This document shows positions 37,601 to 53,962 of a stretch of DNA of 64,000 bases, one piece after another. The stretch is taken from assembly GCA_965279035.1 (NCBI GenBank), contig OZ257142.1:1760001-1824000 (forward strand), in the 5' to 3' direction. Position numbers and translations under genes: made by a program. The notes under the pieces are model-generated. The model saw nothing but the letters and a program-made list of their open reading frames with translations, ran no database searches and was not told where the DNA came from. Origin of the DNA: Bacteroidia bacterium (GTDB lineage Bacteria; Bacteroidota; Bacteroidia; M30B66). The first letter of the stretch is position 1. Each line of letters starts with the position of its first letter.

Positions 37601-40600
37601 TCACCGTTACCGTTACTTCGGCAGAGCAGGTTCCTACAACGCTAGCTGATTTAGAAATTTCTCCTGAGCAATTGGTTGCAGTAACTTGTGTAGCAGCAAT
37701 CGCGGCATTTTTAGCATCATTCACCGAAGAATAACAAGCTGCAATTTCGCCTTTACTTGCCACTGGTGGCGCTGCAATAACTGGAACACTTACGCTTGCT
37801 TCATCGCAATTGCTTGGATTAAGCAGTTCACAAATTCGGTAGTTTAAGGTGTAGTTTCCTGCGGTTGTTCCTGCAGCTACAATCACATTAGAACCACTGA
37901 GTGAAATACCCGGATTGCTTGCGTTTACCAAAGTAATCACAACATTTTCAGGTAGTACAGATGAGCCGTTAAGTTGGTCGTTTGATAAAATATTCACGAA
38001 CGAAGTTCCACCTAAGAAACCATTCACAGCCGAACCAGCATCGTTATTAGCAGCAATCGAAGCCGCCGAAACCGATACACTCACCGTTGCTTCATCACAA
38101 TTTGTTGGATTAAGCACTTCGCAAATACGATAGACGAGAGAGTAGGAGCCAGCAGGTGTTCCCGGAGCAACTTCAACAGCCGAACCACTAAGTGTAATTC
38201 CAGCATGACTAGCACTTACAAAAGAAGTAATGACTTCGGCAGGAATGACTGTAATGCCATTGAGTTTATCGTTCGAAAGAACATTTGAATTCGCCGTTCC
38301 ACCCGTGAAACCATTCACCGAAATTCCGGAATCGTCGTTTGCTTGAATAGGTGCAGCCGAAACCGGAACACTCACTGTAGCTTCGTCACAATTGCTTGGA
38401 TGTTGAACATCACAGATGCTATACGTCAGCGAATAAGTTCCAGCCAGTGTACCCGCAAGGACAGAAACACTTGAACCATTCAGAGTAATTCCAGCATGAG
38501 TAGAACTAACAAAACTTAAGGTAACATGCGCAGGATTTACCAACGAGCAATTGAGTGAATCGTTCGCTAAAACATCCGACAGAGAAACTCCGCCAGCATA
38601 ACCATTCACAGAATTTCCTGCATCATTTACTGCTGCAATTGGTCCTGAAACTATAAGATTACTTGTGCAGGTTTTGGTGTTTCCACAGGCATCTTTAACC
38701 GTGATGGTTATCGTATGCGTTCCCGGTGAAACAAGCGTTCCCGCTAAAGGTGATTGAGAAATACTGAGTGAATTTGTTGCAGTACAATTATCACTTGCTA
38801 CAATACCTGTTGTAAAATCTGGTACGATGCCTTTGCATGATGCATTGGAAGCTATGGTTTGATTAGGTGAACAAGTCGTTATTGTTGGAACAACATCGTC
38901 CGTTACCGTAATCACTTGCGTAAATGTAGCACTTTCATTGTTACAAGCATCTTTCGCAATCCAAGTTGTTGTGTATGTTCCACCACATGCTCCAGCAAGG
39001 AATTCTCCTCCGGATTTTACATAGCTTACTGTTCCACATAAATCGCTAGCCACAGGGCTAAGCAATTGTGCTGCAGCGATCGCTTGTGTATTACTGCATG
39101 AGATAGTTTGGTTTAAAGCTCCTGCAACCGTAGTCCATGTTGGAGCTAAGGCATCAATAACCGAAATAACCTGTGTGAAAGCAGTGCTCGTATTATTACA
39201 TGCATCTTTCGCAACCCATGAATTGGTGTAGGTTCCACTTAAACCGCATTGTCCGACTACAAAACTGCCTGATGTTTTGGTATACGTTACCGAACCACAA
39301 TTATCAGTAGCCGATGGTGCTAATCCTTGAGCCGCAGCTAATGCAGCAGCATCGTTGCAATCGACTGTACGATTTAAACTTTCAGCAATGCTTGTCCATG
39401 TTGGAGCTATTGCATCGGTAACAGTAATGACCTGAGTAAATATTCCACTGGCATTTAATGCTGCATCTTTCGCAATCCAAGTATTGGTATAGGTTCCGGT
39501 TGATCCACACGATCCAGCTACAAATACACCGGAAGTTTTGGTATAGGTTACGTTTCCACAATCGTCTGTTGCTACTGGTGCTAAGGCTTGAGCCGTTGCT
39601 AGTGCCGATGCATTACTACACGAAACTGAAGTATTTAAACTACCTGCGACACTCGTCCATGTAGGTGCATTATTGTCGGAATTTGTAATGCTTAAGTTGA
39701 CAGTAACAGCTGGACAAAGCGCTGCATCTCGAACTTGAACCTGATAATTTCCAGGAGTAAGTGAGGATGCCGTTGCTAATGTTCCACCCGAAGGTGACCA
39801 AGCATAGGTATAAGGACTTGTTCCTCCAACAGCCGTAACGGTTGCGCTACCTAAAGTTCCGCAGGTTACATTTGTTTGAGAGGTGATGGAAGCACTTAAA
39901 GCCGCCGAAGGTTGATTGATTTGAACGATTGCCGTTGCAATACATCCCGTTCCATCTTTCACCGAAACAGTGTATGTGCCGGTTGCTAAATTTGAAAATG
40001 CATGCGTTGATCCGTATGCTCCACTGTTAAAGCTGTATTCATAAGGAAGTGTTCCATTTGCACCAAGCGCAGAAAATGCTCCGGTTGATTGTCCAAAACA
40101 GCTCACATGCGTGACTCCACTTGTGCTAATGCTCAAATTGGAGGTATTACTAACAATTGCATTCGCCGAAAACGTACAACCATTTGCATCGGTTACTACT
40201 ACCGAGTAAGGACCAGCAGACAATCCGCTCGCACTTGCCGTTGTAGCACCCGAAGACCATAAATAGGTATAAGGTGATGTTCCGCCAGAAGCTGTTACCG
40301 TGGCTATTCCGTTACTTCCTCCGCAGGTTGCATTGGTAGAACCCGTTGTTGCTGATAATGCAGCCGATGGTTGTGTAACTGTATGAGTAGCACTTGCCGA
40401 ACATCCACTTGCATCCGTACATGTGATGACATACGAACCGGGTTGTAAGTTCGAAATGGTTGCTACAGTAGAAATAACAGTGTTGTTCCCTTGTCGTTTC
40501 CAACTGTAAGTGTATGGTGCTGTTCCATCGGGCGTAGCCGTAATAGAACCGTTGTTCAAGCCATAACAACTAACATTGGTAATGTTAGCGGGAACACTCA

Positions 40601-43355
40601 ATACCTTCACTTTTACCGATTGATCAGCAGCTCCTGCAATCACGCAGGCATCGCCACCAATAATGCGTCGGTAATAGGTTTTTTGATACAATGCACCCAT
40701 CAGCGCAGCGGAAAGATTTTGAGTAGTTCCTCCACTGATGTTGGTCCAATTGGTACTATCGGTACTCGATTGCCATAAATAAGTGGAAGCAGCTGTTAAT
40801 CCTGAAGGATACGAGCTCGTGGTTCCATTACGGCTAATGGTTGCTAAGGAATAACTTGGAGCAGAACCGCTCAAGCCTGTTACCTGCGCTCCGGCACATA
40901 CGGTTTGACTTCCAGAAATAGTATTGTTCAACAAATCGGGTGGATTTGCCCACACAACCAATCCAGGTTCGTAAATCGAAGTTGAACTTGTTTTCGTTGT
41001 GTTGAGTGCACCTTGTGTGAGTGGAATATTGTTCGACTGCGCAGTCACAATGGTGTAAATACGACAATTCGAAAATTTAATTCCGCGTTCACCTACTGGA
41101 TCGTAATCATCTGCTGATCCACCGTAATATGTACTATAAAGTGGCGAAGCAACTAGGTTTGCTGGTAGTTTGAAAAAGACTTTATCATTTTTAGGTGTAC
41201 CTGAATTACTGCTCGTATTATTCAAATTCGATTGCAAAGCATCCGAAGTGAGTGGAAAGTCGGTACTGTTTGTATATCCGAAAATATAGACATCGTTGTT
41301 GAGGTCCACATTCAATCCCATCATGTTTACTTCATTCAAACTTCCTCCGATATAGGTCGAATTCACGAATGTTTGATTGGTATCCATGCTGGCAACAAAG
41401 AAGTCATTATCGCCGCTATTGTATGAGTTATCGTAATTTCCAGATGCTGGAATATTGCTTGGAGAATCGAGTCCATTGGTTGTTCCTCCAAAATACAAAC
41501 GATTTTTGAGTGTATTAAATTCCATACACAAAATGGAAGTGGATTTACTCGAAGCCGATTTAAAATACGAAGACCAAACAGTAGTTCCGTTCGATTTAAT
41601 TTTTTGAATGAATCCACTTTTCGTTCCGCCCAATGCATTTTGTCGTGCATTGCTTGTCACAGGAAAATCGCTTGAAGTAGTGTATCCTCCTAAGAAAATA
41701 TCTCCATTTGTGGGATTCATTGCCATGATGGTAGCTTGATCCAAGGAAACGTCTTTGGATGCACCTGTTCCACCAAAATTTTTCATCCAGACAATGGAAG
41801 AAAGCGCTTGATTGATTTTGAATAAATGAACATCTGTATTTCCAGTATAACCTGAAGTCCGATTGGTTGCACCGCTCGAAGAATACAGTGTTGCTAAGTT
41901 TTTACTACTCGTATTTCCACAAACAACTACATCACCTGAAGTAGTTAATCGTAAATCGAACGATCCATCATCTCCATCACCACCAATTACAGCAGCTTTA
42001 ATAGCAGTTCCTGCTTGGTTGATTTTTAAGATGAAGGTATTATCTGTTTTTTGCGAACGTTGATCTAAACCTCCTGAATTCCCAAATGCAGATCCTCCAA
42101 TGAGTGGAAAATCAGAACTTCCAGTATAACCAGTAATGTAAAGATTACCATCTGGTCCCATTTCCATCGCGTATGGATTATCGTCGCCCGAACCTCCAAT
42201 ATAGGTTTGCCAAACGCGAGTTCCGCTTCCTCCGATGCTTGATGGTTCCAAGTACTTTCCAACAACTAAATCAATTCCTCCATTCGAAGAATTATCTAAT
42301 GCTCCAACCGAAATTTCGTTGGTTTGTCCATCCACACGGGCAACTACGTAAATAGCACCATCAGTAGGATCAACCCAAATTCCGTGACCATGATTATCGC
42401 CACTTGTTGCATTTTTCCCTGAACCAACTACTTGCGAATTCGAATTCACCCATGTAGCCCAACGCAATGCAATGGGATCGATCACCAAAGGCAAACGTTT
42501 GTTGTATTCTCCTAAATCAAATTGTAGGATTCCTTTTTCATCGAGTTTGTATTTCGATGGAATGTCGATTTGTTTCCCATCTACTTTTTGATACACGATC
42601 GGTTGAGGTAAACGCATCTCACCCACGCTGGTAGAAATGATGAGTTCACCTTTATCCGAAAGTTTCAAACCTGAAACACCTTCCAACTGAATGGCAATGG
42701 CATCTTGCTTAAAACCAGGTTTACAAATGATGTCGTATTCGAGCATCCCATCAGCCGAAGGATAATAACGAACGTCCACTTGATCGTACACGTTGTTATA
42801 CCAAACTTCTTGGAAGCTACTCACCGAAGAAGCTTGACCACTTCCTGAGAAATAACTCATTTGATCGCCATGTTTCTGACGAGCATCAATGCTCATTTTT
42901 TCAGAACCATGAAGGAATTTCATCATCCAAGCATGCGACCGCACTTTGGCGATATCCTCTGTAAAAGGAACACCATCGCGATGCGCTTCTTCTTCGCGCA
43001 TACTTTGTTCGCTATGTCGAGCAAGATCATCTTCACTAAACCAACGCATCACAACACCATCGCGTGTTACGAGCGCTTTTCCTTGTGGGAATTCGGCTTT
43101 ATAAAGGATTTCCTTTTCCCACTGACCTTTGTTTTCGGTAAAGTGAATTTGCTTTTCAAAATAATGAAGCAAGCTTTCCACATCCGGATCCTTTTGAGTT
43201 CCGGTTTGCAAAGGCAAATTCCGACTCGGATTGTTTTGTGAAAATCCAAATACTGGTTGGATGAAAAGGCTTGAAAACAACAATAAGCGCTTAAGCCAGT
43301 TTGACTGACTAGCACATTTGATTGTTTTATTTCTGTAGGTAGGGCTTATAATCAT
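31620..43355 (-). CDS. Giant (3911 aa) T9SS-secreted adhesin-like protein: FxENKGQW N-domain, SBBP propeller, SprB repeats, HYR-like and ANDD Ig/cadherin-like repeats, T9SS CTD
   Basis: FTENKGQW...PLVIDP; TYIGGSGDD propeller repeats; GGTSPYTY; many APTWTS..GSLN...ATDNCG...YTNTWxAKDACNN units; ANDDAG...NDQLNG...GxYxLxYRICE units; LFPNP...LPTGIY. Confidence 0.92.
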   Translation of the reverse strand: MIISPTYRNKTIKCASQSNWLKRLLLFSSLFIQPVFGFSQNNPSRNLPLQTGTQKDPDVESLLHYFEKQIHFTENKGQWEKEILYKAEFPQGKALVTRDGVVMRWFSEDDLARHSEQSMREEEAHRDGVPFTEDIAKVRSHAWMMKFLHGSEKMSIDARQKHGDQMSYFSGSGQASSVSSFQEVWYNNVYDQVDVRYYPSADGMLEYDIICKPGFKQDAIAIQLEGVSGLKLSDKGELIISTSVGEMRLPQPIVYQKVDGKQIDIPSKYKLDEKGILQFDLGEYNKRLPLVIDPIALRWATWVNSNSQVVGSGKNATSGDNHGHGIWVDPTDGAIYVVARVDGQTNEISVGALDNSSNGGIDLVVGKYLEPSSIGGSGTRVWQTYIGGSGDDNPYAMEMGPDGNLYITGYTGSSDFPLIGGSAFGNSGGLDQRSQKTDNTFILKINQAGTAIKAAVIGGDGDDGSFDLRLTTSGDVVVCGNTSSKNLATLYSSSGATNRTSGYTGNTDVHLFKINQALSSIVWMKNFGGTGASKDVSLDQATIMAMNPTNGDIFLGGYTTSSDFPVTSNARQNALGGTKSGFIQKIKSNGTTVWSSYFKSASSKSTSILCMEFNTLKNRLYFGGTTNGLDSPSNIPASGNYDNSYNSGDNDFFVASMDTNQTFVNSTYIGGSLNEVNMMGLNVDLNNDVYIFGYTNSTDFPLTSDALQSNLNNTSSNSGTPKNDKVFFKLPANLVASPLYSTYYGGSADDYDPVGERGIKFSNCRIYTIVTAQSNNIPLTQGALNTTKTSSTSIYEPGLVVWANPPDLLNNTISGSQTVCAGAQVTGLSGSAPSYSLATISRNGTTSSYPSGLTAASTYLWQSSTDSTNWTNISGGTTQNLSAALMGALYQKTYYRRIIGGDACVIAGAADQSVKVKVLSVPANITNVSCYGLNNGSITATPDGTAPYTYSWKRQGNNTVISTVATISNLQPGSYVITCTDASGCSASATHTVTQPSAALSATTGSTNATCGGSNGIATVTASGGTSPYTYLWSSGATTASASGLSAGPYSVVVTDANGCTFSANAIVSNTSNLSISTSGVTHVSCFGQSTGAFSALGANGTLPYEYSFNSGAYGSTHAFSNLATGTYTVSVKDGTGCIATAIVQINQPSAALSASITSQTNVTCGTLGSATVTAVGGTSPYTYAWSPSGGTLATASSLTPGNYQVQVRDAALCPAVTVNLSITNSDNNAPTWTSVAGSLNTSVSCSNASALATAQALAPVATDDCGNVTYTKTSGVFVAGSCGSTGTYTNTWIAKDAALNASGIFTQVITVTDAIAPTWTSIAESLNRTVDCNDAAALAAAQGLAPSATDNCGSVTYTKTSGSFVVGQCGLSGTYTNSWVAKDACNNTSTAFTQVISVIDALAPTWTTVAGALNQTISCSNTQAIAAAQLLSPVASDLCGTVSYVKSGGEFLAGACGGTYTTTWIAKDACNNESATFTQVITVTDDVVPTITTCSPNQTIASNASCKGIVPDFTTGIVASDNCTATNSLSISQSPLAGTLVSPGTHTITITVKDACGNTKTCTSNLIVSGPIAAVNDAGNSVNGYAGGVSLSDVLANDSLNCSLVNPAHVTLSFVSSTHAGITLNGSSVSVLAGTLAGTYSLTYSICDVQHPSNCDEATVSVPVSAAPIQANDDSGISVNGFTGGTANSNVLSNDKLNGITVIPAEVITSFVSASHAGITLSGSAVEVAPGTPAGSYSLVYRICEVLNPTNCDEATVSVSVSAASIAANNDAGSAVNGFLGGTSFVNILSNDQLNGSSVLPENVVITLVNASNPGISLSGSNVIVAAGTTAGNYTLNYRICELLNPSNCDEASVSVPVIAAPPVASKGEIAACYSSVNDAKNAAIAATQVTATNCSGEISKSASVVGTCSAEVTVTVNDECGNTGSVVYSTRIDNAAPTWTSAANSLNRSVACNDTAGLSAAQALSPVANDNCEGTISYTRTAGLFISGACGSTGTYTNSWTASDACGNVSSSFVQVIQIIDESAPTWTSTAGSLDRSVSCSNDDGITAAQALMPSATDNCGGTVNVTKTTGSYVALACGGTYTNTFVAKDECNNSSITFTQTITLTDDIAPIWFSQAGSLNAQVQCGNTAALTQAQSLAPTATDNCGTVTYTKTSGEFVAGSCGSTGSYTNTWIAKDNCSNESLVFTQVIQIIDEQAPTWTTSATALNTTVEAGNAQALATAQSQAPIASDVCTDVTYVKTPGAFTAGECSGSGSYTNTWIAKDACNNESAVFTQVILVGDQTGPSITECSPTQTINANAGCQALVPDFTSGIVANDNGSESSNLNIIQNPSAGTPVGPGTHTITITVTDACGNPSICHTSLVVNSVIAANDDAGNSVNGFIGGTSLANVLLNDQLNCALVESGDVTISFVSSTNSNIGLSGTSVVVSPGTPAGDYSLVYRICEVSNPTVCDEASVSVSVSAASIVANDDSGIPVNGYTGGTAVSNVLVNDQLNGSTVNAGDVVLTFLNASHAGITLSGSSVNVAAGTPAGNYTLSYRICEVMNPSNCDDADVSITVNHTAIVANDDAGASINGYEGGTAFSNVLSNDQLNGNNVNPSEITLSFVSSSNAGITLSGNNVVIAPGTPAGQYSLTYRICEILNPTNCDEAQVSGTITSAPIVANDDAGSTVNGFAGGTAFVNVLSNDRLNGTDVNPSEVTLSFVSSSIPAVSLSGLNVIVAPNTTSGTYSLTYRICEILNPSNCDEASVSIPVSAEAPVATKGSIESCYPNRAAAEAAAIEATTVAAGNCAGDVTKTASTEGTCTAVITVTVADNCGNSGIVSYETHIDGAEPVWSTAEDALNVTLACTDLQGLANAQNTAPVAFDLCENLSYHKTSGSFVAGSCGLSGSYTNTWYVSDDCGNTSSTFTQVITIADTQAPEWTSAANSLNRTISCTDHAGLTGAQALEPIAGDDCGGDVTITKTEGVFAPAACGGSYTNTFIAKDACGNESLAFTQVISIVDEEAPVWTSAAGSLNISIAYGDTSGLIAAQAMAPSASDNCDETVSYVKTSGVFEFASCGGTYTNRWTAKDDCNNSSATEFVQVITITDDVNPTWISEAGSLNVTVSCSNAQALITVQAMRPDVRDNVDAVDFEIHKFAGSFIASSCGGTYTNTFTTSDACGNQSDVFTQVITVTDDAAPTWTSAANALNRSVSCSNTSALNAAQVLQPIATDNCGSIILTKYPGEFVAAACGGTYTNTWIARDACNNASTVYTQVITITDNTAPTWVSAAGSLNRTMAVSNEQALILAQSLAPEASDLCSQVTYTKTAGTFAPTSCGGTYTNTWVAKDACNNSSTTFTQVITLTEQSAPIWVSAAGSLNRMVECGNTADLNAAQALAPIATDNNGSVTITKTTGAFSGAVCGGIYTNTWTAKDACNNVSAVFTQVITIYDYSNPIISNAGPNKTITCPTVAQFDAPTATDNCGTPSMVVISTVTCAPSIVTGIYTITRKWKAVDACGNSSGIRTQVITVNPMQSTVNQSICAGSSYTFYGQSYSQPGTYTKLTTNEQGCNLLAKLILTVRTPSIAASGINTSSPSVPSGASVALSVSGGMLGTDAVWKWYKGACGTGVYMGSGPSLIVSPTQNTTYFVRAEGPCGITSCVQKTIFVEPTGSCTVQEIVSFTQGKRKDMSNVLAARSVQSNCLGNPQYNDSQNAPINFLSLGFGGELIVKFPGPIANGAGNDLRIVETSFGNPSCGNYKERIRVSISQDGTNYSILGEGCLDTDFNFDAANMGWAQYVKITDISLRSDFPAADADGFDVDGVICLNGSAVFARLSNEEEPQELSQERGSSMKLFPNPNDGNVNVTLPAYKGKAQLRVFNTVGQLIASYPLNATDHPEASNFKLSLSLLPTGIYQVNFEAEGKAEALKFFKQ

Positions 43356-43802
43356 AAGCGATAAATTGGTTGGGTTTTGATGGATAAAACTCTTTACTGA
43401 TGAGGAGTGTGAGCCTTTTTTAGGTTTCGAATTTTAATCCGGTTTTGTTGCGTTTTTGTTTGAAATAGGTTGACATTTCTTTGTTTTATTACTCAGCTTT
43501 ATACCTAAATCTCGTGTGGGGGTTTCCCTTCAGACACCCTAGAATTCATCAAGTCTTCAAAATGGGTGATAGGAAAATCGGACATCTTGTTTTTATTTTT
43601 CAATTCAAACTTTCATTTAAAGCAGCCGATTAACTCGTATTGTTTGATCACAACACGTATTAACCTGAATTCTATTTTGAGATACAATTCAGATTTGTGT
43701 GTAAGTTTTTATTGCATTCTTTTTAAAAAAATGCTGCCTTAAAGGAATTAGGATGGTTTGTGTTTGAATGAATAACTAGTGTTAGTTGATTCAATCATTC
43801 CT

Positions 43803-43810
43803 TAGCTTTG
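43803..43810 (+). promoter_or_regulatory. Sigma-A -7 element (TAGCTTTG) of the uORF-TonB operon
   Basis: Matches TAnnTTTG directly before GTG 43815 / ATG 43821. Confidence 0.65.
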
Positions 43811-43820
43811 CTTTGTGAAA

Positions 43821-44204
43821 ATGAAATCGCTTTCGGGTTATTTGTTGCTGATGGTTTTCTGTCTGCGCTTCCTGCCATCGCTGGAAATGCACGACCATCG
43901 TACCTCCCATGAGCGATGCATTCAGGAGCATTTAGAACATCGCAATCAATATAGTTCTTGCGAATTGACTGAGGTCTTAGGATGGGATTTCGGAGGACAT
44001 TGTTCCGATAAAAATCACTTGAAAGAAACCCAAAAAGAATGCGCTTCTTGCGGTTTCGACTTTATTAAGAATTTCGATGCGGCTGTATTTTCAGTTCAAG
44101 AAGTAAGCACATTTCATTTAGCCAACATCGATTTTCCAATCGAAAATTGCTACTCCGGATTTACCTTATTGTTATGCAATAAAGGGCCGCCTGCCTTTGC
44201 CTGA
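43821..44204 (+). CDS. His/Cys-rich DUF2946-like upstream ORF, putative arrest-peptide regulator
   Basis: Hydrophobic N-terminus; HDH..H...EHLEH, HC...H, CASC; C-terminal NKGPPAFA; 49 nt before a TonB receptor; alternative GTG at 43815. Confidence 0.65.
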   Translation: MKSLSGYLLLMVFCLRFLPSLEMHDHRTSHERCIQEHLEHRNQYSSCELTEVLGWDFGGHCSDKNHLKETQKECASCGFDFIKNFDAAVFSVQEVSTFHLANIDFPIENCYSGFTLLLCNKGPPAFA

Positions 44205-44253
44205 TATCAAATAGTACTATTCATTTCCTAATCAGGTCCAACAATTTTAAAGC

Positions 44254-46602
44254 ATGTCAATTCCATTTTCCTTTGGTAGGAAAGTGCTGACACTATTCCT
44301 GTTTCTATATATTCCTATGCATTATTGTAGTGCACAGGATTGTGACAGTCGTTTGTTTTTGCATTTCTCCAATCCTTCTGCAAAGCCCGTTGCAGTAAAA
44401 CTATTTTTCAAGAATTCAGAACGAACACTTTCGTTTAATTCATCCATAATGCTTTCTACATTATGTCCCGGACAATACCGCATTGTTTTGCTCCAAGCAG
44501 GATATCTTCCCTTGGATACGAGTTTCACACTGGCTAAATCTCTCGATTTAATTCTTCCACTTATTCCACGTGTGAAAGAATTGAAAGAACTTGAAATTCA
44601 TGAGGATCATCTCGATCAACAAGGGCGATTAACGCTGCAATCATCTCAACTGAATGCATCACAATGGCAAGCAAATGCAGGCAAACCATTGGGCGAAATG
44701 TTGAAGGAGGCGAGTGGAGTGAGTAGTTTGCAATCGGGTCCAACCATTTCGAAACCGGTCATTCATGGTTTACATAGCAATCGGGTAGTATTGATTAACA
44801 ATGGCATTCGGCTGGAAAGTCAGCAATGGGGCGCCGAACACGCTCCGGAGATTGATCCATTTAATGTTGTGAGTGCAACAGTTTTAAAAGGAGCTGCCAG
44901 TTTACGCTATGGTTCAGATGCGATAGCAGGCGTTGTATTACTTCAACCTAAAACGATGGATTTTGAGAAAGGCACACGAGGCGAAGTAGTTCTCAATGGA
45001 ATGAGCAATGGTAGAATGGGCGCTGCATCTGCACGAATTGAACATGCGTTTGGAGGGAAATTCAAAGGCATGGGAATTCGAATTCAAGGAACACTAAAAG
45101 ATGCAGGAAATATAAAAACACCTACCTATTATTTGAAAAATACAGGCATGTGTGAAAACGATGTTTCAGCGACTTGGATGTATACGAATAAACGTGTAGC
45201 AATGGAAATTTCTGGGTCGATTTTCAAAACTCAAATCGGGATTTTTACAGGTTCACATGTGGGGAATCTCAAAGACTTGGAAGCTGCTCTTCAAAGCGTT
45301 TTTCCTAAAGATTCTTCCGGATTCTCTCGCAAAATTGAACGTGGTTTTCAAGAAGTAAAACACGAAACATTCAAAGCACGTTTTTGCTATCATTTAAATG
45401 AATACAAACAGCTAGAAATTGTATACGGACTTCAACGCAATCACCGTCAAGAATACGATAGCGGCTTGCCTTTAAGTACCAATCCTGCGATATTAAATGC
45501 TGCTCAAGCCGACTTTTTAATTAGCACCAATACACTCGATGTTTTGTATTCTGAGAAGCTCAATGGGTTGTATTCATTGTCGATAGGAGCAAGTTTGCTG
45601 AGTCAAGGAAATGTGTTTAAAGGATTAGAATACCGTGCATTAATTCCCAATTTTCGAAACAATGGCGCAGGTAGTTTTATCGCGCTTTCGCGAAAGAAAA
45701 AAAGGTTGATTATCGAAGCTGGTTTACGTTACGATTATCGCTGGTTGGAGTGTTATCGATTGGATTATACAACACTCGAAACCTTTGCAACATTGCATCA
45801 ATTCCAAAATGGTTCCTTTTCACTTGGAGGCTTGTATCAATTCAACGAAAAGTTCAGCATACAGACAAATGTAGGTTCAGCATGGCGTGCACCCAACGTG
45901 AATGAATTATACGGAAACGGAGTTCATCAAAGTGCTGCTTCATTCGAAATTGGAGATAGTACTTTACTTAGCGAACGTGCTTATAATGCTATCATTTCAG
46001 GCCTTTGGGAAAGTAGTAAATCACGTTTCGAAATTGGAATTTATCGAAATCAACTAGATCATTTCATTTTCTTAAAACCACTTCTTGTCCCAGTAATTAC
46101 CATTGCCGGAGCTTATCCAGCCTTTCAACAAACTCAGGTAAATGCAGTATTCACTGGACTCGATTTCGATTTTAAAACCATCCTCTGGAGAAGTCTTAAA
46201 ATAGGAGGGAAGTTGGCTCTGATTCAAGGGTATAATCGAACAATTCATGATTATTTAGTCTACACTCCTTCGAACCGAGGAGACATGTTTTTGATGATCG
46301 AAGGCAATGCGAATGAACGTGGGAAAAAGTCCTATGTCAAGTTGAGTGCTCAGTATGTAGCTCGACAAAATCATGTACCATCGAATAGCGATTATGTAGC
46401 TCCCCCGGCAGACTATTTTCTGATGAATTTCGATGCTGGATTATCAGTAGGGAAGAAGCATCCAATCGATTTGGGATTTTCAATTTACAATGTATTCAAT
46501 ACACAATACCGAGAGTATTTAAATCGCTTTCGGTATTTTGCAAATGAGCAGGGACGATCGTTTGTTCTAAGAATTTCTGTCCCCTTTACTCTAAAAAAAT
46601 AA
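44254..46602 (+). CDS. TonB-dependent receptor, probably metal-ion uptake
   Basis: Plug motifs KPVIHGLHSNRV, QQWGAEHAPEID, KGAASLRYGSDAIAGV; RAPNVNELYGNGVH; C-terminal YLNRFRYF...GR. Confidence 0.92.
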   Translation: MSIPFSFGRKVLTLFLFLYIPMHYCSAQDCDSRLFLHFSNPSAKPVAVKLFFKNSERTLSFNSSIMLSTLCPGQYRIVLLQAGYLPLDTSFTLAKSLDLILPLIPRVKELKELEIHEDHLDQQGRLTLQSSQLNASQWQANAGKPLGEMLKEASGVSSLQSGPTISKPVIHGLHSNRVVLINNGIRLESQQWGAEHAPEIDPFNVVSATVLKGAASLRYGSDAIAGVVLLQPKTMDFEKGTRGEVVLNGMSNGRMGAASARIEHAFGGKFKGMGIRIQGTLKDAGNIKTPTYYLKNTGMCENDVSATWMYTNKRVAMEISGSIFKTQIGIFTGSHVGNLKDLEAALQSVFPKDSSGFSRKIERGFQEVKHETFKARFCYHLNEYKQLEIVYGLQRNHRQEYDSGLPLSTNPAILNAAQADFLISTNTLDVLYSEKLNGLYSLSIGASLLSQGNVFKGLEYRALIPNFRNNGAGSFIALSRKKKRLIIEAGLRYDYRWLECYRLDYTTLETFATLHQFQNGSFSLGGLYQFNEKFSIQTNVGSAWRAPNVNELYGNGVHQSAASFEIGDSTLLSERAYNAIISGLWESSKSRFEIGIYRNQLDHFIFLKPLLVPVITIAGAYPAFQQTQVNAVFTGLDFDFKTILWRSLKIGGKLALIQGYNRTIHDYLVYTPSNRGDMFLMIEGNANERGKKSYVKLSAQYVARQNHVPSNSDYVAPPADYFLMNFDAGLSVGKKHPIDLGFSIYNVFNTQYREYLNRFRYFANEQGRSFVLRISVPFTLKK

Positions 46603-46605
46603 ACC

Positions 46606-47184
46606 ATGAAAAATCATAAACGCTTTTGGAATATCATTTTTTCAATTTCCATTCTATTTGGAATGAATGGGTGTAAAAAGGACGAACAAGTTGTTTCTCC
46701 ACCTTTACCCGGAAATGAATTAATCACAACGGTGAAACTACAATTTATCAGTAGTGATCAGGCTGATACAATTCAAGCTGTGTGGCGCGATTTAACTCCA
46801 AACGACATCAATCCTCCGGATACGAGTGCCGCTGTAATTTCACTGCGTGCGAATAAATCCTATCAAGCAGAAATTGCTTTTTGGGATGAAACAAAATCTC
46901 CAGCAGTCGACTTAACTCCTGAGATTAAACAACGCGGTAATTATCACCGAATCTTTTATTTTTCTTCTAGCCTTTTGGGAAATAATCTCGTATTCATCAT
47001 CAACGATTTTGACACGAATTCTCCACCTTTGGCATTAGGAATTTCATCTACATGTACAACGCATGATGTATCTTCGGGCTTCCTAAATGTTATTTTAAAA
47101 CATCAACCTAACGTAAAAGATGGCACATTTGCACCCGGTTCAATTGATCTCGATGTGAATTTTCAAGTGTCTATTCAACCTTAA
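46606..47184 (+). CDS. Lipoprotein associated with the TonB receptor
   Basis: Lipobox MNGC; ELITTV..F, W.D, EI....YH..FY, ILKHQP..K, DLDV.F motifs. Confidence 0.75.
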   Translation: MKNHKRFWNIIFSISILFGMNGCKKDEQVVSPPLPGNELITTVKLQFISSDQADTIQAVWRDLTPNDINPPDTSAAVISLRANKSYQAEIAFWDETKSPAVDLTPEIKQRGNYHRIFYFSSSLLGNNLVFIINDFDTNSPPLALGISSTCTTHDVSSGFLNVILKHQPNVKDGTFAPGSIDLDVNFQVSIQP

Positions 47185-47193
47185 TTCTCCGCA

Positions 47194-47904
47194 ATGAAAA
47201 AAATATTCTTAACAAGCTTTCTTTTTTGCTCTCTTATTTCATGGGCGCAAACCGACAAAGGAACCTACTTTATAGACCTTACAGCAGGTGTAGCTTTTGC
47301 TTCTGGCAATTTCATCAAAACCGATTATGCCGATTCCACTTCTGGATTTGCGCAATCGACCGGTTTGGCTATTCAGTGGAAATCGGGTGTTTTTATTCGA
47401 AAGAATTTTTCGATCAATATGGTCATTGGTTCAAACCAATTTGGAATTGCTGAATTGCAGAAAATGGCCGATGGATTTTTGAGCGATTTTAATGTGGATA
47501 GCACCACCGTTACTGTGAAAGGAAAATATGCAAGTGCGAATTATTTGTTAGGTCCTTCTTATTCATATCCTCTAGGGAAATTGATTCTCGATGCACATGT
47601 TTTAGCTGGAATTTCCACCTTGCAAATACCTCAAATGAAGGTTGATTTGGAAGATAATACCAGTGCAACGTTTTATCAGAAGAAATCAAGCGGGATAGGA
47701 TTTGGATTGCAATCCGGTATTGGAATAAAATACTTCTTAGGAGAACATTTCGCTTTAAGTTTTAACGGTGATTATTTACTAGCTAAACCCAAAGTCAGCA
47801 TCGAAAACGAAAACAGAACCAATACTGCGGGCAGGTATTTAAGAACCTATCAGCAATCGATTGGTGGCATTTCAGCTAAACTGGGATTGACGTATGTTTT
47901 TTAA
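47194..47904 (+). CDS. Outer-membrane beta-barrel protein
   Basis: Signal peptide; amphipathic strands; C-terminal LGLTYVF. Confidence 0.8.
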   Translation: MKKIFLTSFLFCSLISWAQTDKGTYFIDLTAGVAFASGNFIKTDYADSTSGFAQSTGLAIQWKSGVFIRKNFSINMVIGSNQFGIAELQKMADGFLSDFNVDSTTVTVKGKYASANYLLGPSYSYPLGKLILDAHVLAGISTLQIPQMKVDLEDNTSATFYQKKSSGIGFGLQSGIGIKYFLGEHFALSFNGDYLLAKPKVSIENENRTNTAGRYLRTYQQSIGGISAKLGLTYVF

Positions 47905-47977: not shown

Positions 47978-49447
47978 ATGAGAGAAATAGTTCAATCGAA
48001 GTATCGTAAACTATTGCTGTTAGGATTGCTTGTGTATATTCTAACAGCGGTTTTTAGTATTGGATATTTTCATCCAGATGAGCATTTTCAAATTCTGGAA
48101 TTTTGTCAGTATAAATTAGGGAAATCTCCCCTGAGCGATTTACCTTGGGAATACAACGAACACATGCGTCCCGCTTTGCAGCCAAGCATGGTTTTTATTC
48201 TTATTAAATTCCTACAACTCTTCCAGCTTCAAAATCCATTTTACATAGCTAGTATTTTACGATTATTAAGTGGGATTTTAACTTGGTTTGTCACTTCTAT
48301 TTTAGCAATACAGCTCCTATCTAATTTTAAAACAGAAAAGGGAAAACGAAAATTTCTTTTAGCTACTTATTTCCTGTGGTTTATTCCTTTTTTAAGTGTT
48401 CGATTTTCTTCCGAAAATTTTGCAGCCATTTTCCTGCTTGCTTCCTTGATTGTTTTTTTTAGAATTTCCCCCAATAGTAAATCGTATGTCAACTATGTAT
48501 GGGTAGGAATTTTATTGGGACTTTCTTTTTTCTTTCGATTTCAAATGGGCTTCGCCCTTCTTGGAATTGCCGCCTGGTTGCTATTCATACGACAATTAGC
48601 ATTTCGAAGTATACTTATCATTGCCATCGGTGGAGTATTATCCATAGCCTTTGGAACACTCGTCGATCGTTGGTTTTATGGCGAATGGGTGTGCACTCCT
48701 TATCAGTATTTCTTTGCCAATATCATTCAAAATAAAGCAGCCAAATTTGGGACAGAACCAATCTGGTATTATTTCAATTCCTTTTTTATTTCAGCCATTC
48801 CACCCATTAGCATTTTGCTTTTTATATTCTTATGCATTGGTTCTAAAAACAATAAAAAGGATATATTTTTATGGATACTCATTCCATTTGTCCTTGCGCA
48901 TTCGCTTGTTGCTCATAAAGAAATGCGTTTTTTATTTCCTCTCATTTTTGGATTTATTTATTTAAGTGCATTGGGTTTAGATTCTATTTATCACCAATCG
49001 AAACATCTCAAATGGTGGAAATTATTTTTGCGCTTAGTGCTGATAATTAATATTCCAATTCTCTGCATTCGTTGCCTGATGCCCGCTAACGAATCCGTTG
49101 CGTATTATCGCTATATGTACAATCAGTATAACGAAAAACCAATAACCATTTTGAGTAGAGAAAAGGAACTCTATTTCTTGAAAACGAATTTCTATAAAAC
49201 TCCCGGTGTACACTCTCTCCAACTCGAAAATGATACTGCTATACGAGCCTTTTTATTGGAGAAAAATCCCAAATCAATCCTCCTGTTTGAATCCGAATTG
49301 AAAAATGGAACAATTCAATATCCCGGCTATAAACGCGAATTAAACTTTTGCTTATTTCCGCAATGGATTCTCGATAATAATCTAAATAATTGGCAAAGCA
49401 GATCGCGCATTTGGAGCATTTGGGAATTGAAAAGAATAGAGGATTGA
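47978..49447 (+). CDS. Alg9/PIG-B-like (GT22, GT-C fold) membrane glycosyltransferase
   Basis: HPDEHFQILE, PWEY...R, and HKEMRFLFP motifs; polytopic membrane protein. Confidence 0.8.
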   Translation: MREIVQSKYRKLLLLGLLVYILTAVFSIGYFHPDEHFQILEFCQYKLGKSPLSDLPWEYNEHMRPALQPSMVFILIKFLQLFQLQNPFYIASILRLLSGILTWFVTSILAIQLLSNFKTEKGKRKFLLATYFLWFIPFLSVRFSSENFAAIFLLASLIVFFRISPNSKSYVNYVWVGILLGLSFFFRFQMGFALLGIAAWLLFIRQLAFRSILIIAIGGVLSIAFGTLVDRWFYGEWVCTPYQYFFANIIQNKAAKFGTEPIWYYFNSFFISAIPPISILLFIFLCIGSKNNKKDIFLWILIPFVLAHSLVAHKEMRFLFPLIFGFIYLSALGLDSIYHQSKHLKWWKLFLRLVLIINIPILCIRCLMPANESVAYYRYMYNQYNEKPITILSREKELYFLKTNFYKTPGVHSLQLENDTAIRAFLLEKNPKSILLFESELKNGTIQYPGYKRELNFCLFPQWILDNNLNNWQSRSRIWSIWELKRIED

Positions 49448-51413: not shown

Positions 51414-51511
51414 AATTGTAATCGTTATTGATAGTGTATCTTATAAAAATCATTGTTTCGAAAACATTTTTCGAAGCCGTATGTTTGAAGCGGCAAATCT
51501 TTCTTCAATAT

Positions 51512-53962
51512 ATGTTAATACGTGCTACACTTCTTTTACTTTTTCTAATTTCAACCACCACATTTGCCCAAAACACCGGCTCTATTCAAGGAACCGTGAA
51601 AGATAAAAACACTCAGGAAACTCTCGTTGGAGCTACGATCCAATTAGAAAATACCACCTTGGGTGTGAATACCGATATTGATGGAAACTTCAAACTCAGC
51701 AACATTCCGGTGGGTAGTTATGCCGTTAAAGCAACGCTTGTTGGATATAAACCACTTACCAAATTCAACATCAATATCACTTCTGGAAACGCCATCGTGC
51801 TCAGCTTTGAACTCGAATCTTCATCAACCGATCTCAAAGAAGTTGAAATAACTTTCGATAAAAATCGCTCTGCTGCAGCTGTCGATATGGTTACTCCTTT
51901 ATCTGTTCAAACGCTCACTACCGAAGAAATTCGTAGCAATCCGGGTGGGAATTTTGATATATCTAAAGTAGTGCAAGTATTACCCGGCGTAGCTGGTGCT
52001 GCAGGTGCCTCGTTTCGTAACGACATTATCATTCGTGGTGGCGCTCCTAACGAAAATGTATATTATCTCGATGGCATCGAAATTCCAGTCCTAAACCACT
52101 TTCAAACACAAGGGAGTTCTGGTGGTCCTGCAGGTATGTTAAATGTGTCGTTCATTGAAGATGTAAAACTCAGCTCCTCTGCATTCGACGCGCGTTTTGA
52201 TAATGCAATGGCTTCTGTTTTTCAATTCAAACAACGTCAAGGAAACCAAGACCGCATCTCCGGAAACGTGCGAACCAGCTCAACCGAAGTGGCAACTACA
52301 CTCGAAGGTCCCATTAATAAGAAAACCAATTTCCTCGTTTCAGGGCGACGTTCGTATTTGCAGCTTTTATTCAAAGCCATCGACTTACCCATTCGTCCCA
52401 ATTACTGGGATTTTCAATACAAAGTCACGCATAAAATCAACGATAAAACTACACTCACGGCTTTGGGAATTGGTGCAATAGACCAGTTTTCATTGGCTGT
52501 TCCGCGCAAATCGACACCCGATAATACCTATATTTTAAATGCTACACCAACCATCAATCAATGGAATTACACGGTTGGTTTTGGTGTAAAACGATTGATA
52601 AAACATGGATTTATCAATATAACGGCAAGTCGGAATATGTTTAATAATAACATCGACCGATTTGAGAATAAACAAGATGGCGATGAGAGCAAACGCATTT
52701 TAAAAATTCGTTCTCAGGAAATTGAAAATAAATTCCGATTCGATGTCAATACCTTTAAAAACGGATGGAAGATATCTTATGGTGTGATGTTGCAGTACGT
52801 GAAATTCAATAATGAATTATACAATCGTTTAGTTAAACAGCAACAAATAATCAATCCGCAATCGGGCGATACGATTACAGTTCCACAAGTTTTATTGCAG
52901 TATAATTCGAATATTGAATTCTTTAAATACGGTGCATTTGGACAAATTTCTAAACGCTTTTTTAAAGAGAAATTCTTGGTCAGCGCCGGATTAAGAACCG
53001 ACATGAATTCCTTTACCAGCACTGGAAATAATCCTGGAAAAACACTTTCGCCGCGTGTGTCAATCTCATGGAATTTCCTTCCTAAATGGAATTTAAATGC
53101 ATCAGTTGGGACCTATTATAAAATTCCAACTTACACCGTTTTAGGATTCCGCGATTCGTTGAATGTTACGGTAAATGCAGGTTCTAGCTATATTCGATCA
53201 ACGCATTATGTTACAGGATTTGAGTATTTACCGAAGGAAGATTTACGTTTTACACTCGAAGGATTTTATAAGAAATATTCGAACTATCCGGTGTCGTTGC
53301 GTGATGGTATTTCGTTGGCTAATCAAGGTGGTGGTTTCGATGTACTCGGAAATGAGCCTGTTACCAGCATTGGCGGTGGCGAAACCTATGGATTAGAATT
53401 TTATGTGCAACAAAAATTGACCAAGAAAACCTTTGCTGTATTAAGCTACACGCTAGTACGTTCGCGCTTTTCAGGGACCAATGGGAAATTAATTTCTTCG
53501 GCTTGGGATTATCGCAATTTATTTTCGGCATTAGTAGGTCGCAAATTCAAACGTGGTTGGGAAGTGGGAATTAAATATCGTTTCGCGGGTGGAGCGCCTT
53601 ACACGCCTTTCGATATGCCTGCATCGCAATTAAATTTCGCTACTACGGGTACTGGAATTTTAAATTACTCTCAACTCAATACTTTACGATTAATCAACTT
53701 TAATCAGTTCGATATCCGTATCGATAAGAAGATTTATTTCAAGCGCGCCACACTCGATTTATACATGGATGTGACCAATGCTGCCGGTTTTGCGAATCCT
53801 TCTTTGCCTAATTATTCTTTCAAACGTAACGCTGATAATTCGGGCTTCGAAACCACCGATGGTCAAGCATTGAAGCAAGATGGCTCGAATGGAATTCCAG
53901 TTTTATTGCAAGATCAATCGGCTTTAGTAACTCCTTCGATCGGCTTTATTTTCGAATTTTAA
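51512..53962 (+). CDS. TonB-dependent receptor with N-terminal carboxypeptidase-regulatory-like domain
   Basis: GSIQGTVKD..TQETLVGA, LPGV, RNDIIIRGG..ENVYYLDG; C-terminal GFIFEF; ATG at 51512. Confidence 0.93.
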   Translation: MLIRATLLLLFLISTTTFAQNTGSIQGTVKDKNTQETLVGATIQLENTTLGVNTDIDGNFKLSNIPVGSYAVKATLVGYKPLTKFNINITSGNAIVLSFELESSSTDLKEVEITFDKNRSAAAVDMVTPLSVQTLTTEEIRSNPGGNFDISKVVQVLPGVAGAAGASFRNDIIIRGGAPNENVYYLDGIEIPVLNHFQTQGSSGGPAGMLNVSFIEDVKLSSSAFDARFDNAMASVFQFKQRQGNQDRISGNVRTSSTEVATTLEGPINKKTNFLVSGRRSYLQLLFKAIDLPIRPNYWDFQYKVTHKINDKTTLTALGIGAIDQFSLAVPRKSTPDNTYILNATPTINQWNYTVGFGVKRLIKHGFINITASRNMFNNNIDRFENKQDGDESKRILKIRSQEIENKFRFDVNTFKNGWKISYGVMLQYVKFNNELYNRLVKQQQIINPQSGDTITVPQVLLQYNSNIEFFKYGAFGQISKRFFKEKFLVSAGLRTDMNSFTSTGNNPGKTLSPRVSISWNFLPKWNLNASVGTYYKIPTYTVLGFRDSLNVTVNAGSSYIRSTHYVTGFEYLPKEDLRFTLEGFYKKYSNYPVSLRDGISLANQGGGFDVLGNEPVTSIGGGETYGLEFYVQQKLTKKTFAVLSYTLVRSRFSGTNGKLISSAWDYRNLFSALVGRKFKRGWEVGIKYRFAGGAPYTPFDMPASQLNFATTGTGILNYSQLNTLRLINFNQFDIRIDKKIYFKRATLDLYMDVTNAAGFANPSLPNYSFKRNADNSGFETTDGQALKQDGSNGIPVLLQDQSALVTPSIGFIFEF

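Follow-up and report, generated by a model that had tools for sequence, protein, structure and literature searches.

Previous work on Bordetella pertussis described CruR (Bp2923), a small protein encoded first in the operon of a TonB-dependent receptor and belonging to DUF2946 (PF11162), a family defined by a CXXC and a RAPP motif (PMC9426467). According to that report, the CXXC of CruR lies 45 residues from the RAPP, a distance conserved within 1-2 residues, the RAPP stands three residues from the C-terminus, and copper, acting via the CXXC, relieves translational arrest and allows Rho-dependent termination before the receptor gene. Toeprinting in vitro placed the two Pro codons of stalled CruR in the ribosomal P and A sites (PMC12992588). 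A second precedent is CutF of Rhodobacter capsulatus, with a CxxxC motif and a poly-proline end (mBio 2023, PMC9973294). Both CruR and CutF are reported to act in cis and to be barely detectable as proteins, and the signal peptide of CruR is described as dispensable for function (PMC9426467; bioRxiv 10.1101/2022.11.11.516240). Here we compare with these systems a leader open reading frame (ORF) at 43815..44204 (+) of a 64,000-nt stretch of DNA (the window, from whose first nucleotide all coordinates are counted) of a Bacteroidia bacterium (assembly GCA_965279035.1, contig OZ257142.1, positions 1,760,001 to 1,824,000). We conclude, from comparison with relatives and with described systems, that this ORF is probably a cis-acting, metal-responsive translation-arrest leader, built like Bordetella CruR and controlling the receptor, lipoprotein and barrel genes that follow it. 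A preliminary description of this DNA had already likened the ORF to CruR, and its account of CruR and DUF2946 agrees with the sections of PMC9426467 that describe them.

Such systems were already known and anticipated in Bacteroidota. Upstream ORFs ending in RAPP or RGPP are reported to occur before TonB receptors throughout Gram-negative bacteria (PMC12992588), and in a published list of CutF-like proteins, filtered for PP within 15 residues of the C-terminus, Bacteroidota are a major phylum and TonB-like proteins are frequent neighbors. CutF-like proteins are described as carrying a Sec signal together with a Cys motif, as ending in PP and as acting in cis via a stem-loop before the next gene (bioRxiv 10.1101/2022.11.11.516240, 10.1101/2025.02.05.636593); with CutF itself, a detoxifying oxidase is switched on at high copper and the stem-loop masks the Shine-Dalgarno sequence (bioRxiv 10.1101/2022.11.11.516240). 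The published list may already contain members of the family described below, and the small supplementary files of PMC9973294 hold no KGPP entry. The RAPP/RGPP catalogue was extracted with RGPP and RAPP only, as its report states (PMC12992588), so the 57 members of our family that end in KGPP lie outside it. What is new here is the uncatalogued family itself, its exact 43-residue ruler, its extended ligand set and its invariant NKGPP.

The leader is 129 aa long from GTG 43815 and 127 aa from ATG 43821, the codon from which we number its residues, and reads MKSLSGYLLLMVFCLRFLPSLEMHDHRTSHERCIQEHLEH...HCSDKNH...CASC...NKGPPAFA before a TGA stop at 44202-44204. A hydrophobic N-terminal segment, a putative signal peptide or signal anchor (residues 7-21, 43839..43883), is followed by a putative Cys/His sensor region (43890..44051) in which H24, H26, C47, C61, H66 and C74-x-x-C77 are conserved in 33 aligned members, and which also contains H30, C33, H37, H40 and H60; the CxxC reads CASC (C74-C77, 44040-44051). 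A 43-residue spacer (residues 78-120, 44052..44180), with a variable core at residues 86-117, leads to NKGPP (44178..44192), the proposed arrest motif. Its KGPP (residues 121-124, 44181-44192), followed by A-F-A and the stop, has no second [KR][GA]PP beside it in any of the window's six reading frames. A hairpin (44199..44237) includes the stop codon in its 5' arm, and the receptor gene begins after a gap of 49 nt at ATG 44254. The preliminary description had listed the -7 box, the ORF, the His/Cys cluster, the CASC, the NKGPPAFA, the stem and the downstream genes, and every one of these was found where it had been placed.

Like CruR, the leader is the first gene of a TonB-receptor operon, has a hydrophobic N-terminus and a CxxC, is poorly structured in prediction, and carries x-[G/A]-P-P three residues before its stop codon; its spacer is sequence-free and nearly fixed in length, at 43 residues within two of the 45 of CruR, and the expected logic, metal relieving arrest and shutting off an importer, would be the same. 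Unlike CruR, it has Lys for the Arg of the motif (K-G in the window, R-A in CruR) with an obligatory Asn before it, as well as extra invariant ligands (HxH, two Cys and one His). The gap to the receptor gene is 49 nt with a stop-codon hairpin, whereas it is 162 nt in CruR, for which Rho-dependent termination was shown; the receptor is heme/ZnuD-like, whereas DUF2946 operons often contain OprC-type receptors; and the leader has an apparently leaderless mRNA with a GTG start, belongs to the phylum Bacteroidota and escapes the PF11162 hidden Markov model (HMM). With CutF it shares a small Cys-motif protein with a hydrophobic N-terminus that may be an export signal and a C-terminal Pro-Pro, and an mRNA stem-loop before the next gene; the CxxxC, the poly-proline end, the induction of an oxidase by high copper and the masking of a Shine-Dalgarno sequence are features of CutF that set it apart. 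Bacteroidota genes largely lack Shine-Dalgarno sequences. As in ApdA, ApdP, ApcA and SecM, x-G/A-P-P stands near the C-terminus of a small protein with a (here putative) localization signal, upstream of a presumably regulated gene, and the features of the RAPP class present in the window are G122-P123-P124, three residues before the stop and 49 nt before the receptor gene.

To place the leader, we searched for its relatives. Scans with Pfam and NCBIfam matched no family to the leader ORF (no Pfam match at E<=1) or to its relatives, 33 of which share no Pfam or NCBIfam family even when E<=10 is allowed, and the NCBIfam name HYC_CC_PP, a possible home, was not among the leader's matches. A PDB sequence search with the leader family profile gave 0 matches at E<=1, and Rfam gave no match near threshold across 43300-44400. 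A profile of the close homologues, which are 57-67% identical, was run against 1.84 billion cluster representatives and retrieved 33 proteins at E<=0.001, 30 of them of similar length and matched end-to-end; the distant members are about 21-31% identical to the window's leader. A word-index search with alignment A3 (33 rows) retrieved 30 proteins, all of which are named hypothetical and lack a precomputed Pfam domain. When whole genomes were searched with A3, there were matches in 9/401 genomes sampled across the phylum, in 53/400 of the class of the closest relative and in 8/24 of its order. After removal of duplicates, there were 89 distinct members. The tallies below include P0005, which is outside A3, and omit three long proteins with many short matches (P0011, P0015 and P0023) as well as L039 (a shortened leader), L040 (a RAPP ORF with 45-residue spacing) and L041 (cut at a contig end). 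Between the leader and its orthologues, synonymous divergence (dS) was about 1.8-2.0 in the two computable pairs (it was not computable in three) and nonsynonymous divergence (dN) was 0.19-0.61. Since synonymous sites are saturated, dN is low, and the motifs and their spacing are conserved in 89 relatives, the sequences clearly point beyond chance to a real conserved gene, which belongs to a Bacteroidota family catalogued by neither Pfam nor NCBIfam.

The preliminary description had put forward conservation of the G-P-P core and its distance to the stop codon as a check, and this was borne out: all 89 members end in [K/R][G/A]PP, 1-8 residues before the stop (mode 3), with 57 KGPP, 29 RGPP and 3 RAPP. 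Within A3, P123 and P124 are invariant and G122 is nearly so; C47, C61, H66 and C74 do not vary, and H24, H26 and C77 hardly do. The CxxC is present in 85/89 members, the other four lacking the second Cys; one of these, L019, was counted by hand and keeps the register. In the 85 members with CxxC, the distance from it to the K/R is 43 residues in 70, 44 in 8, 45 in 4 and 46 in 3. A subfamily comprising L063, L066, L067 and L068, and probably L061, has [P/L/Q]RGPP and 44-residue spacing.

The three parts of the leader evolve very differently. In the linker (residues 86-117), the mean frequency of the top residue is 0.21 and the entropy 3.45 bits, compared with about 0.50 and 2.1 bits in the sensor region and 0.77 and 1.0 bits in the arrest motif, and linker dN is 3-5x sensor dN. 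An AlphaFold2 model of the leader (mean pLDDT 64, pTM 0.27) has as its sole confident part a helix of residues 2-22 (block pLDDT 81-89). A conserved sensor, a spacer constrained in length and free in sequence, and an x-G-P-P end together make up the layout of an arrest peptide, unlike that of a folded domain, and the AlphaFold2 model agrees, since only the N-terminal helix is confident.

Other leader types were seen among these genomes. In the closest relative's order, L039:681-908 (+) is a K-type leader, by eye closely similar up to residue ~75, which a stop cuts short immediately ahead of the CxxC. A GC-rich hairpin comes next, no receptor gene lies behind it, and the leader looks like the remnant of a lost operon. 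Two other small ORFs ending in GRAPP occur in the same order, at L039:1889-2206 (-) and L040:1471-1866 (+); one lacks a CxxC and lies upstream of a DUF4625 lipoprotein, and the other has CELC, a spacing of 45 residues and a downstream receptor. This order seems to harbor several types of leader.

We next consider kinship with DUF2946. A distant member, L018, scored 13.2 bits (E 0.16) on PF11162, for which the gathering score is 23.7 bits, and when 201 genomes of the phylum were searched with PF11162, 15 ORFs matched weakly, 2 of them above the cut-off. Alignment A4 was made of seven of these ORFs, from the Bacteroidota phylum, that end in R[A/G]PP and score 21.0-25.4 bits (cut-off 23.7). When A3 was compared with A4 by hhalign, the probability was 95.5% (E 1.3e-8) for an aligned stretch of 63 columns, which reaches from C61 to the end motif, with A4 itself only straddling the Pfam cut-off; a control comparison of the family with an unrelated alignment gave 0.7%. 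In the ESM Atlas, 5/30 of the nearest clusters are named DUF2946, which is a lead only. Since the PF11162 HMM fails on the family (see below) and hhalign links the family to threshold sequences, we would call the leader a remote relative with a probable mode of action like that of CruR, and would not count it in PF11162 as that family is defined. The view of the leader as a Bacteroidota counterpart of CruR is supported by the G-P-P core, the spacing and the synteny, with a remote profile link in place of a direct DUF2946 HMM match.

The association with a TonB receptor is consistent throughout the family. In a first set of loci (the window, L001, L003, L004, L017-L024, L037 and L038), a TonB receptor is encoded immediately after the leader, at 35-116 nt on the same strand, in 14/14; these receptors were identified by BLASTP to that of the window (L001, L003), by Pfam (L004, L017-L024, L038) or by eye (L037). 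In the class-level set, a homologous receptor is directly downstream in 21/27 loci and follows a lipoprotein gene in 4/27, the other two (L061 and L064) having no assignment. When both sets are pooled, the receptor is directly downstream in 35/41 and after a lipoprotein in 4/41 (39/41 together). The receptors are full-length mutual homologues with 27-65% identity. That of the window (44254..46602, +; 782 aa), the proposed regulated gene, has Plug and barrel domains and falls in a heme/ZnuD-like clade. Its NCBIfam matches are all far below cut-off (TonB-hemlactrns, for hemoglobin, transferrin and lactoferrin, 1.7e-34, a hemin subfamily, ZnuD 1.3e-21, and TonB-copper weaker), and its only PDB sequence match is ZnuD (5.5e-13 over 96 residues).

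Next comes a 192-aa lipoprotein of an uncatalogued family (46606..47184, +), whose homologues are co-inherited with leader and receptor: they occur in L004, L018, L019 and L024, and between leader and receptor in L063 and L066-L068. The order leader, lipoprotein, receptor in L063, L066, L067 and L068 (probably also L061) differs from the order leader, receptor, lipoprotein of the window. The lipoprotein has no Pfam, NCBIfam or PDB match (the best PDB hit of its profile has only E 0.6), and its family shares the invariant residues E38, D62, Y86, E106, H114, D136, H166 and D181; the lipoprotein is a candidate for a surface partner of the receptor that binds metal. A 236-aa outer-membrane beta-barrel protein (47194..47904, +; PF13505, 1.6e-7), which has a counterpart in L004, is encoded at the end of the presumed operon. 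As to the metal, the ligand set HxH, C, C-x4-H-x7-C-x2-C would suit zinc, and also copper or iron. For the zinc or nickel input suggested in the preliminary description, our analysis offers just two things, this ligand set and the receptor's one PDB sequence match, ZnuD, and our own guess would be zinc first and copper second.

The window carries Lys121, not Arg, at the first position of the motif, and KGPP is the majority form of the family (57/89). In ApcA, ApdA and ApdP, arrest peptides of the RAPG/RAPP type, all 19 substitutions of the Arg are reported to abolish arrest on ribosomes of B. subtilis as well as on those of E. coli, the N-K context not being among those mutated; the same irreplaceability is cited there for SecM, and Gly for Ala at the second position is described as fully permissive or stronger (PMC12992588). 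The Arg is described as inserted in a pocket of the 23S rRNA, where it stacks on pseudouridine 2504 and could form five direct hydrogen bonds with rRNA (PMC10951233), and Lys cannot fully reproduce these contacts. In our family, Asn precedes the K in 57/57 K-type members and in 6/32 R-type members (Fisher p 4e-17, uncorrected for kinship), and K and R alternate at this one position on the family tree, the best tree needing 6 changes. The source data of Fig. EV3 in PMC12992588 place KGPP among the 50 most under-represented bacterial tetrapeptides, with mean frequency biases in Bacteroidota of 0.068 for KGPP, 0.173 for RGPP and 0.137 for RAPP, and KGPP biases of 0.06 in Bacillota and 0.23 in Gammaproteobacteria; the main text of that report is silent on KGPP. 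In our literature searches, no paper turned up in which KGPP is treated as an arrest motif of bacteria. An arrest of Bacteroidota ribosomes by NKGPP itself, comparable to that caused by RAPP elsewhere, is a real possibility, and we hold it to be slightly less likely than not.

At the end of the leader, CCTGAT (44200-44205) pairs with ATCAGG (44231-44236), and an outer G44199-U44237 adds a seventh pair, so that the arms are 44199-44205 and 44231-44237. A 5' arm that includes the stop codon is seen in the window, L001/L004, L002, L003, L037, L018, L019 and L020. Both arms are conserved islands in the close loci; counted from the sequences, 16-18 nt separate the end of the 3' arm from the receptor ATG in the window (16 nt), L001, L003 and L037, with a loop of 25 to 42 nt, and in L037 a compensatory change converts TGA/TCAGG to TAA/TTAGG. 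The hairpin has z -3.9 in L001, -3.4 in L018 and -2.6 in L019. Over 29 loci, the mean predicted probability that the stop codon pairs downstream is 0.61, compared with 0.40 after shuffling (Wilcoxon p 4e-4, uncorrected for kinship), and it exceeds 0.5 in 19/29. Direct pairing of the stall or stop region with the receptor start is strong only in L017, L022 and L023, a flavobacterial-type subgroup, and in L038 (z -8.2 to -2.8). In L017, L022 and L023, bases at the leader stop (TAATTTTTTCA-like) are complementary to the first codons of the receptor (ATGAAAAAATTA), with duplex z of -8.2, -3.0 and -3.6; these three are close relatives and amount to roughly one observation.

By analogy with CruR, a ribosome translating the leader would stall at N-K-G-P-P with Pro123 (44187-44189) in the P site and Pro124 (44190-44192) in the A site. 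At this point the CxxC, 46 residues from the P-site proline, would be just outside the exit tunnel, and the other His/Cys ligands further out. The stop codon begins 15 nt downstream of the P site, a distance which corresponds to the leading edge of the ribosome footprint. The 5' arm of the hairpin would lie beneath the stalled ribosome. With the stop codon and the 5' arm covered, the downstream RNA could be left open, or shielded from termination, and the receptor operon would be expressed. When metal is plentiful, we infer that the Cys/His module binds it, folds and pulls on the nascent chain, which would release the arrest and let the ribosome terminate three codons later; the hairpin could then form, or a terminator or Rho could act, and expression would fall. 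This CruR-type logic would suit an importer. The control could act by translational unmasking, by attenuation or by Rho-dependent termination.

The start of the leader bears on how it is transcribed. A box of the form TAnnTTTG, which we take to be the -7 consensus of Bacteroides promoters, is present in the window as TAGCTTTG (43803..43810, +), 4 nt upstream of GTG 43815. In L001, L002, L004 and L038, an exact TAnnTTTG lies 4 nt before an in-frame, conserved GTG, with near-matches in L003 and L037, and the close loci in general have an exact or near box 4-5 nt upstream of an in-frame GTG or TTG. GTG 43815 is invariant in 5 close loci, and those other than the window lack the ATG. The arrangement of box and start was found in 10/40 loci and is a clade feature, not a family feature. 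Because the -7 box is only 4-5 nt from the conserved start, these sequences suggest that the leader mRNA is leaderless or nearly so. No TAnnTTTG was found in any of the 12 leader-receptor gaps examined; a separate receptor promoter had been named in the preliminary description as an observation that would speak against control by the leader. A search for a Fur or Zur box upstream of the leader, a look by eye only, found none: the palindromes at 43667-43694 and 43786-43796 are not conserved in L001.

A number of observations weigh against an arrest leader of the CruR kind. Since the Arg is irreplaceable in the peptides tested, KGPP should not arrest, and, on a poorly supported tree, the well-supported branches force only one K/R change. 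The DUF2946 HMM search put forward in the preliminary description matched 0/33 family members at E<=10 (L037 and L038 likewise have no PF11162 match), and the genome of the closest relative holds no PF11162 candidates. For a mere signal peptide, the conservation of the first 25 residues is unusually high, which could indicate a function of the mature protein. The hairpin of the window is weak (-6.5 kcal/mol, z -1.43, with 17/200 shuffles folding equally well); this stem alone is not beyond chance, and its support comes only from the relatives. Its 3' arm does not cover the receptor start codon, direct pairing of the stall region with the receptor start is absent in the window (z +0.8) and most loci, the covariation consists of one compensatory pair in four sequences and is not distinguishable from shuffles, and the predicted pairing of the stop codon is <=0.5 in 10/29 loci. 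A sigma-70 and terminator scan, which does not model Bacteroidota promoters, found no canonical terminator in the leader-receptor gap.

These points lend some weight to other explanations. The high conservation of the hydrophobic segment and adjacent HxH in close homologues, together with seven Cys/His positions that are invariant or nearly so, would suit a metal-binding protein that is exported or anchored in the membrane (such as a chaperone of the periplasm, a partner of the receptor or a peptide resembling a metallophore), acts in trans and uses NKGPP for folding, sorting or contact, and Lys in the place of an 'irreplaceable' Arg argues against classical RAPP arrest. However, a 32-residue stretch that is nearly random in sequence and nearly fixed in length is better suited to a spacer that spans the tunnel than to a folded domain; past the N-terminal helix, the AlphaFold2 model shows no confident fold; the motif keeps within 1-8 residues of the stop in 89/89 members; and KGPP is, by the source data of PMC12992588, otherwise purged from Bacteroidota proteomes. 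No gene for a peptide-modifying enzyme was found between 43356 and 49447, and CruR and CutF, which have the same layout, are described as cis-acting and hardly visible as proteins. We therefore regard a protein acting in trans as unlikely. Much less probable still is an ordinary Pro-Pro pause relieved by EF-P, or no pause at all, with the ORF linked to the receptor by a shared transcript only. Such a reading would accommodate the abolition of arrest by Arg-to-Lys in three of three tested peptides (PMC12992588) and the weak hairpin of the window, but it leaves unexplained an NKGPP that is invariant in 57/57 K-type members over branch lengths of more than 1 change per site, a nearly fixed spacing, the co-inheritance of ORF and receptor, and the persistence of a leader remnant where the receptor is gone (L039).

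A further alternative keeps the arrest and changes its input. As in CutF-like proteins, which are described as having a Sec signal, a Cys motif and a PP end and as acting thus through a stem-loop, the chain could be exported during its translation, the pull of Sec could normally release the arrest, and metal in the periplasm could prolong the stall and turn the genes on; or the leader could monitor export capacity. The predicted N-terminal hydrophobic helix would fit this, and with the ribosome stalled, H24 to C61 would stand 62-99 residues away from the peptidyl-transferase center, far enough to lie outside the cytoplasm if exported. Yet the induction of an importer by a metal that is already abundant would make little sense physiologically; CruR, which provides the precedent ahead of a TonB receptor, is reported to work in the opposite direction and not to need its signal peptide; and the residues after the hydrophobic segment (LPSLEMH in the window, IPFNALH in others) are by eye unlike a signal-peptidase site. 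We hold this input to be improbable, to about the same degree as a protein acting in trans. A CruR-like leader, at which the ribosome would stall and from which metal would release it, is thus the reading that we favor.

The surroundings of the operon are as follows. Divergent from the leader lies a giant ORF of 3911 aa (31620-43355, -) that contains numerous domain repeats in tandem and whose end, judged by eye, is typical of surface proteins secreted by Bacteroidota; the leader of L004 likewise adjoins a large divergent ORF. Directly after the operon, 47978-49447 (+) encodes a 489-aa membrane protein, an Alg9-like mannosyltransferase (GT22, PF03901, E 5e-38). Further on, an 844-aa ORF (51428-53962, +) is by eye another TonB-dependent receptor, and it has no [KR][GA]PP-ending leader upstream.

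Arrest leaders that sense a metal and precede TonB receptors were discovered only recently, and they have one worked example, the copper-responsive CruR, and a motif-based catalogue. The leader family described here would extend them to a branch unnamed in Pfam and NCBIfam and present in 53 of the 400 genomes sampled from one class of Bacteroidota. With the family comes a sharp contradiction, since its commonest motif form has Lys where three saturation-mutagenesis series found Arg indispensable. One way to join these facts, which we offer tentatively and hold to be slightly less likely than not, is that an Asn-assisted Lys replaces Arg in Bacteroidota arrest, and that a zinc-type Cys/His module of the nascent chain, folding at the tunnel exit 46 residues from the P-site Pro, releases the arrest. 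If this is true, the sequence grammar of the arrest class would be wider and lineage-dependent, and the leader would be an in vivo counterpart of laboratory zinc-finger force experiments. If NKGPP stalls Bacteroidota ribosomes, the arrest pocket is more tolerant than thought, or phylum-dependent; the published avoidance of KGPP in proteomes would gain an explanation, and searches restricted to RAPP and RGPP would miss the majority form and under-count such regulators. The 43-residue spacer would then be a natural ruler for the distance from the peptidyl-transferase center at which a metal module must stand to act on the stall. If NKGPP does not stall, a CruR-like layout has been kept in these bacteria for another reason, which would be equally worth knowing.

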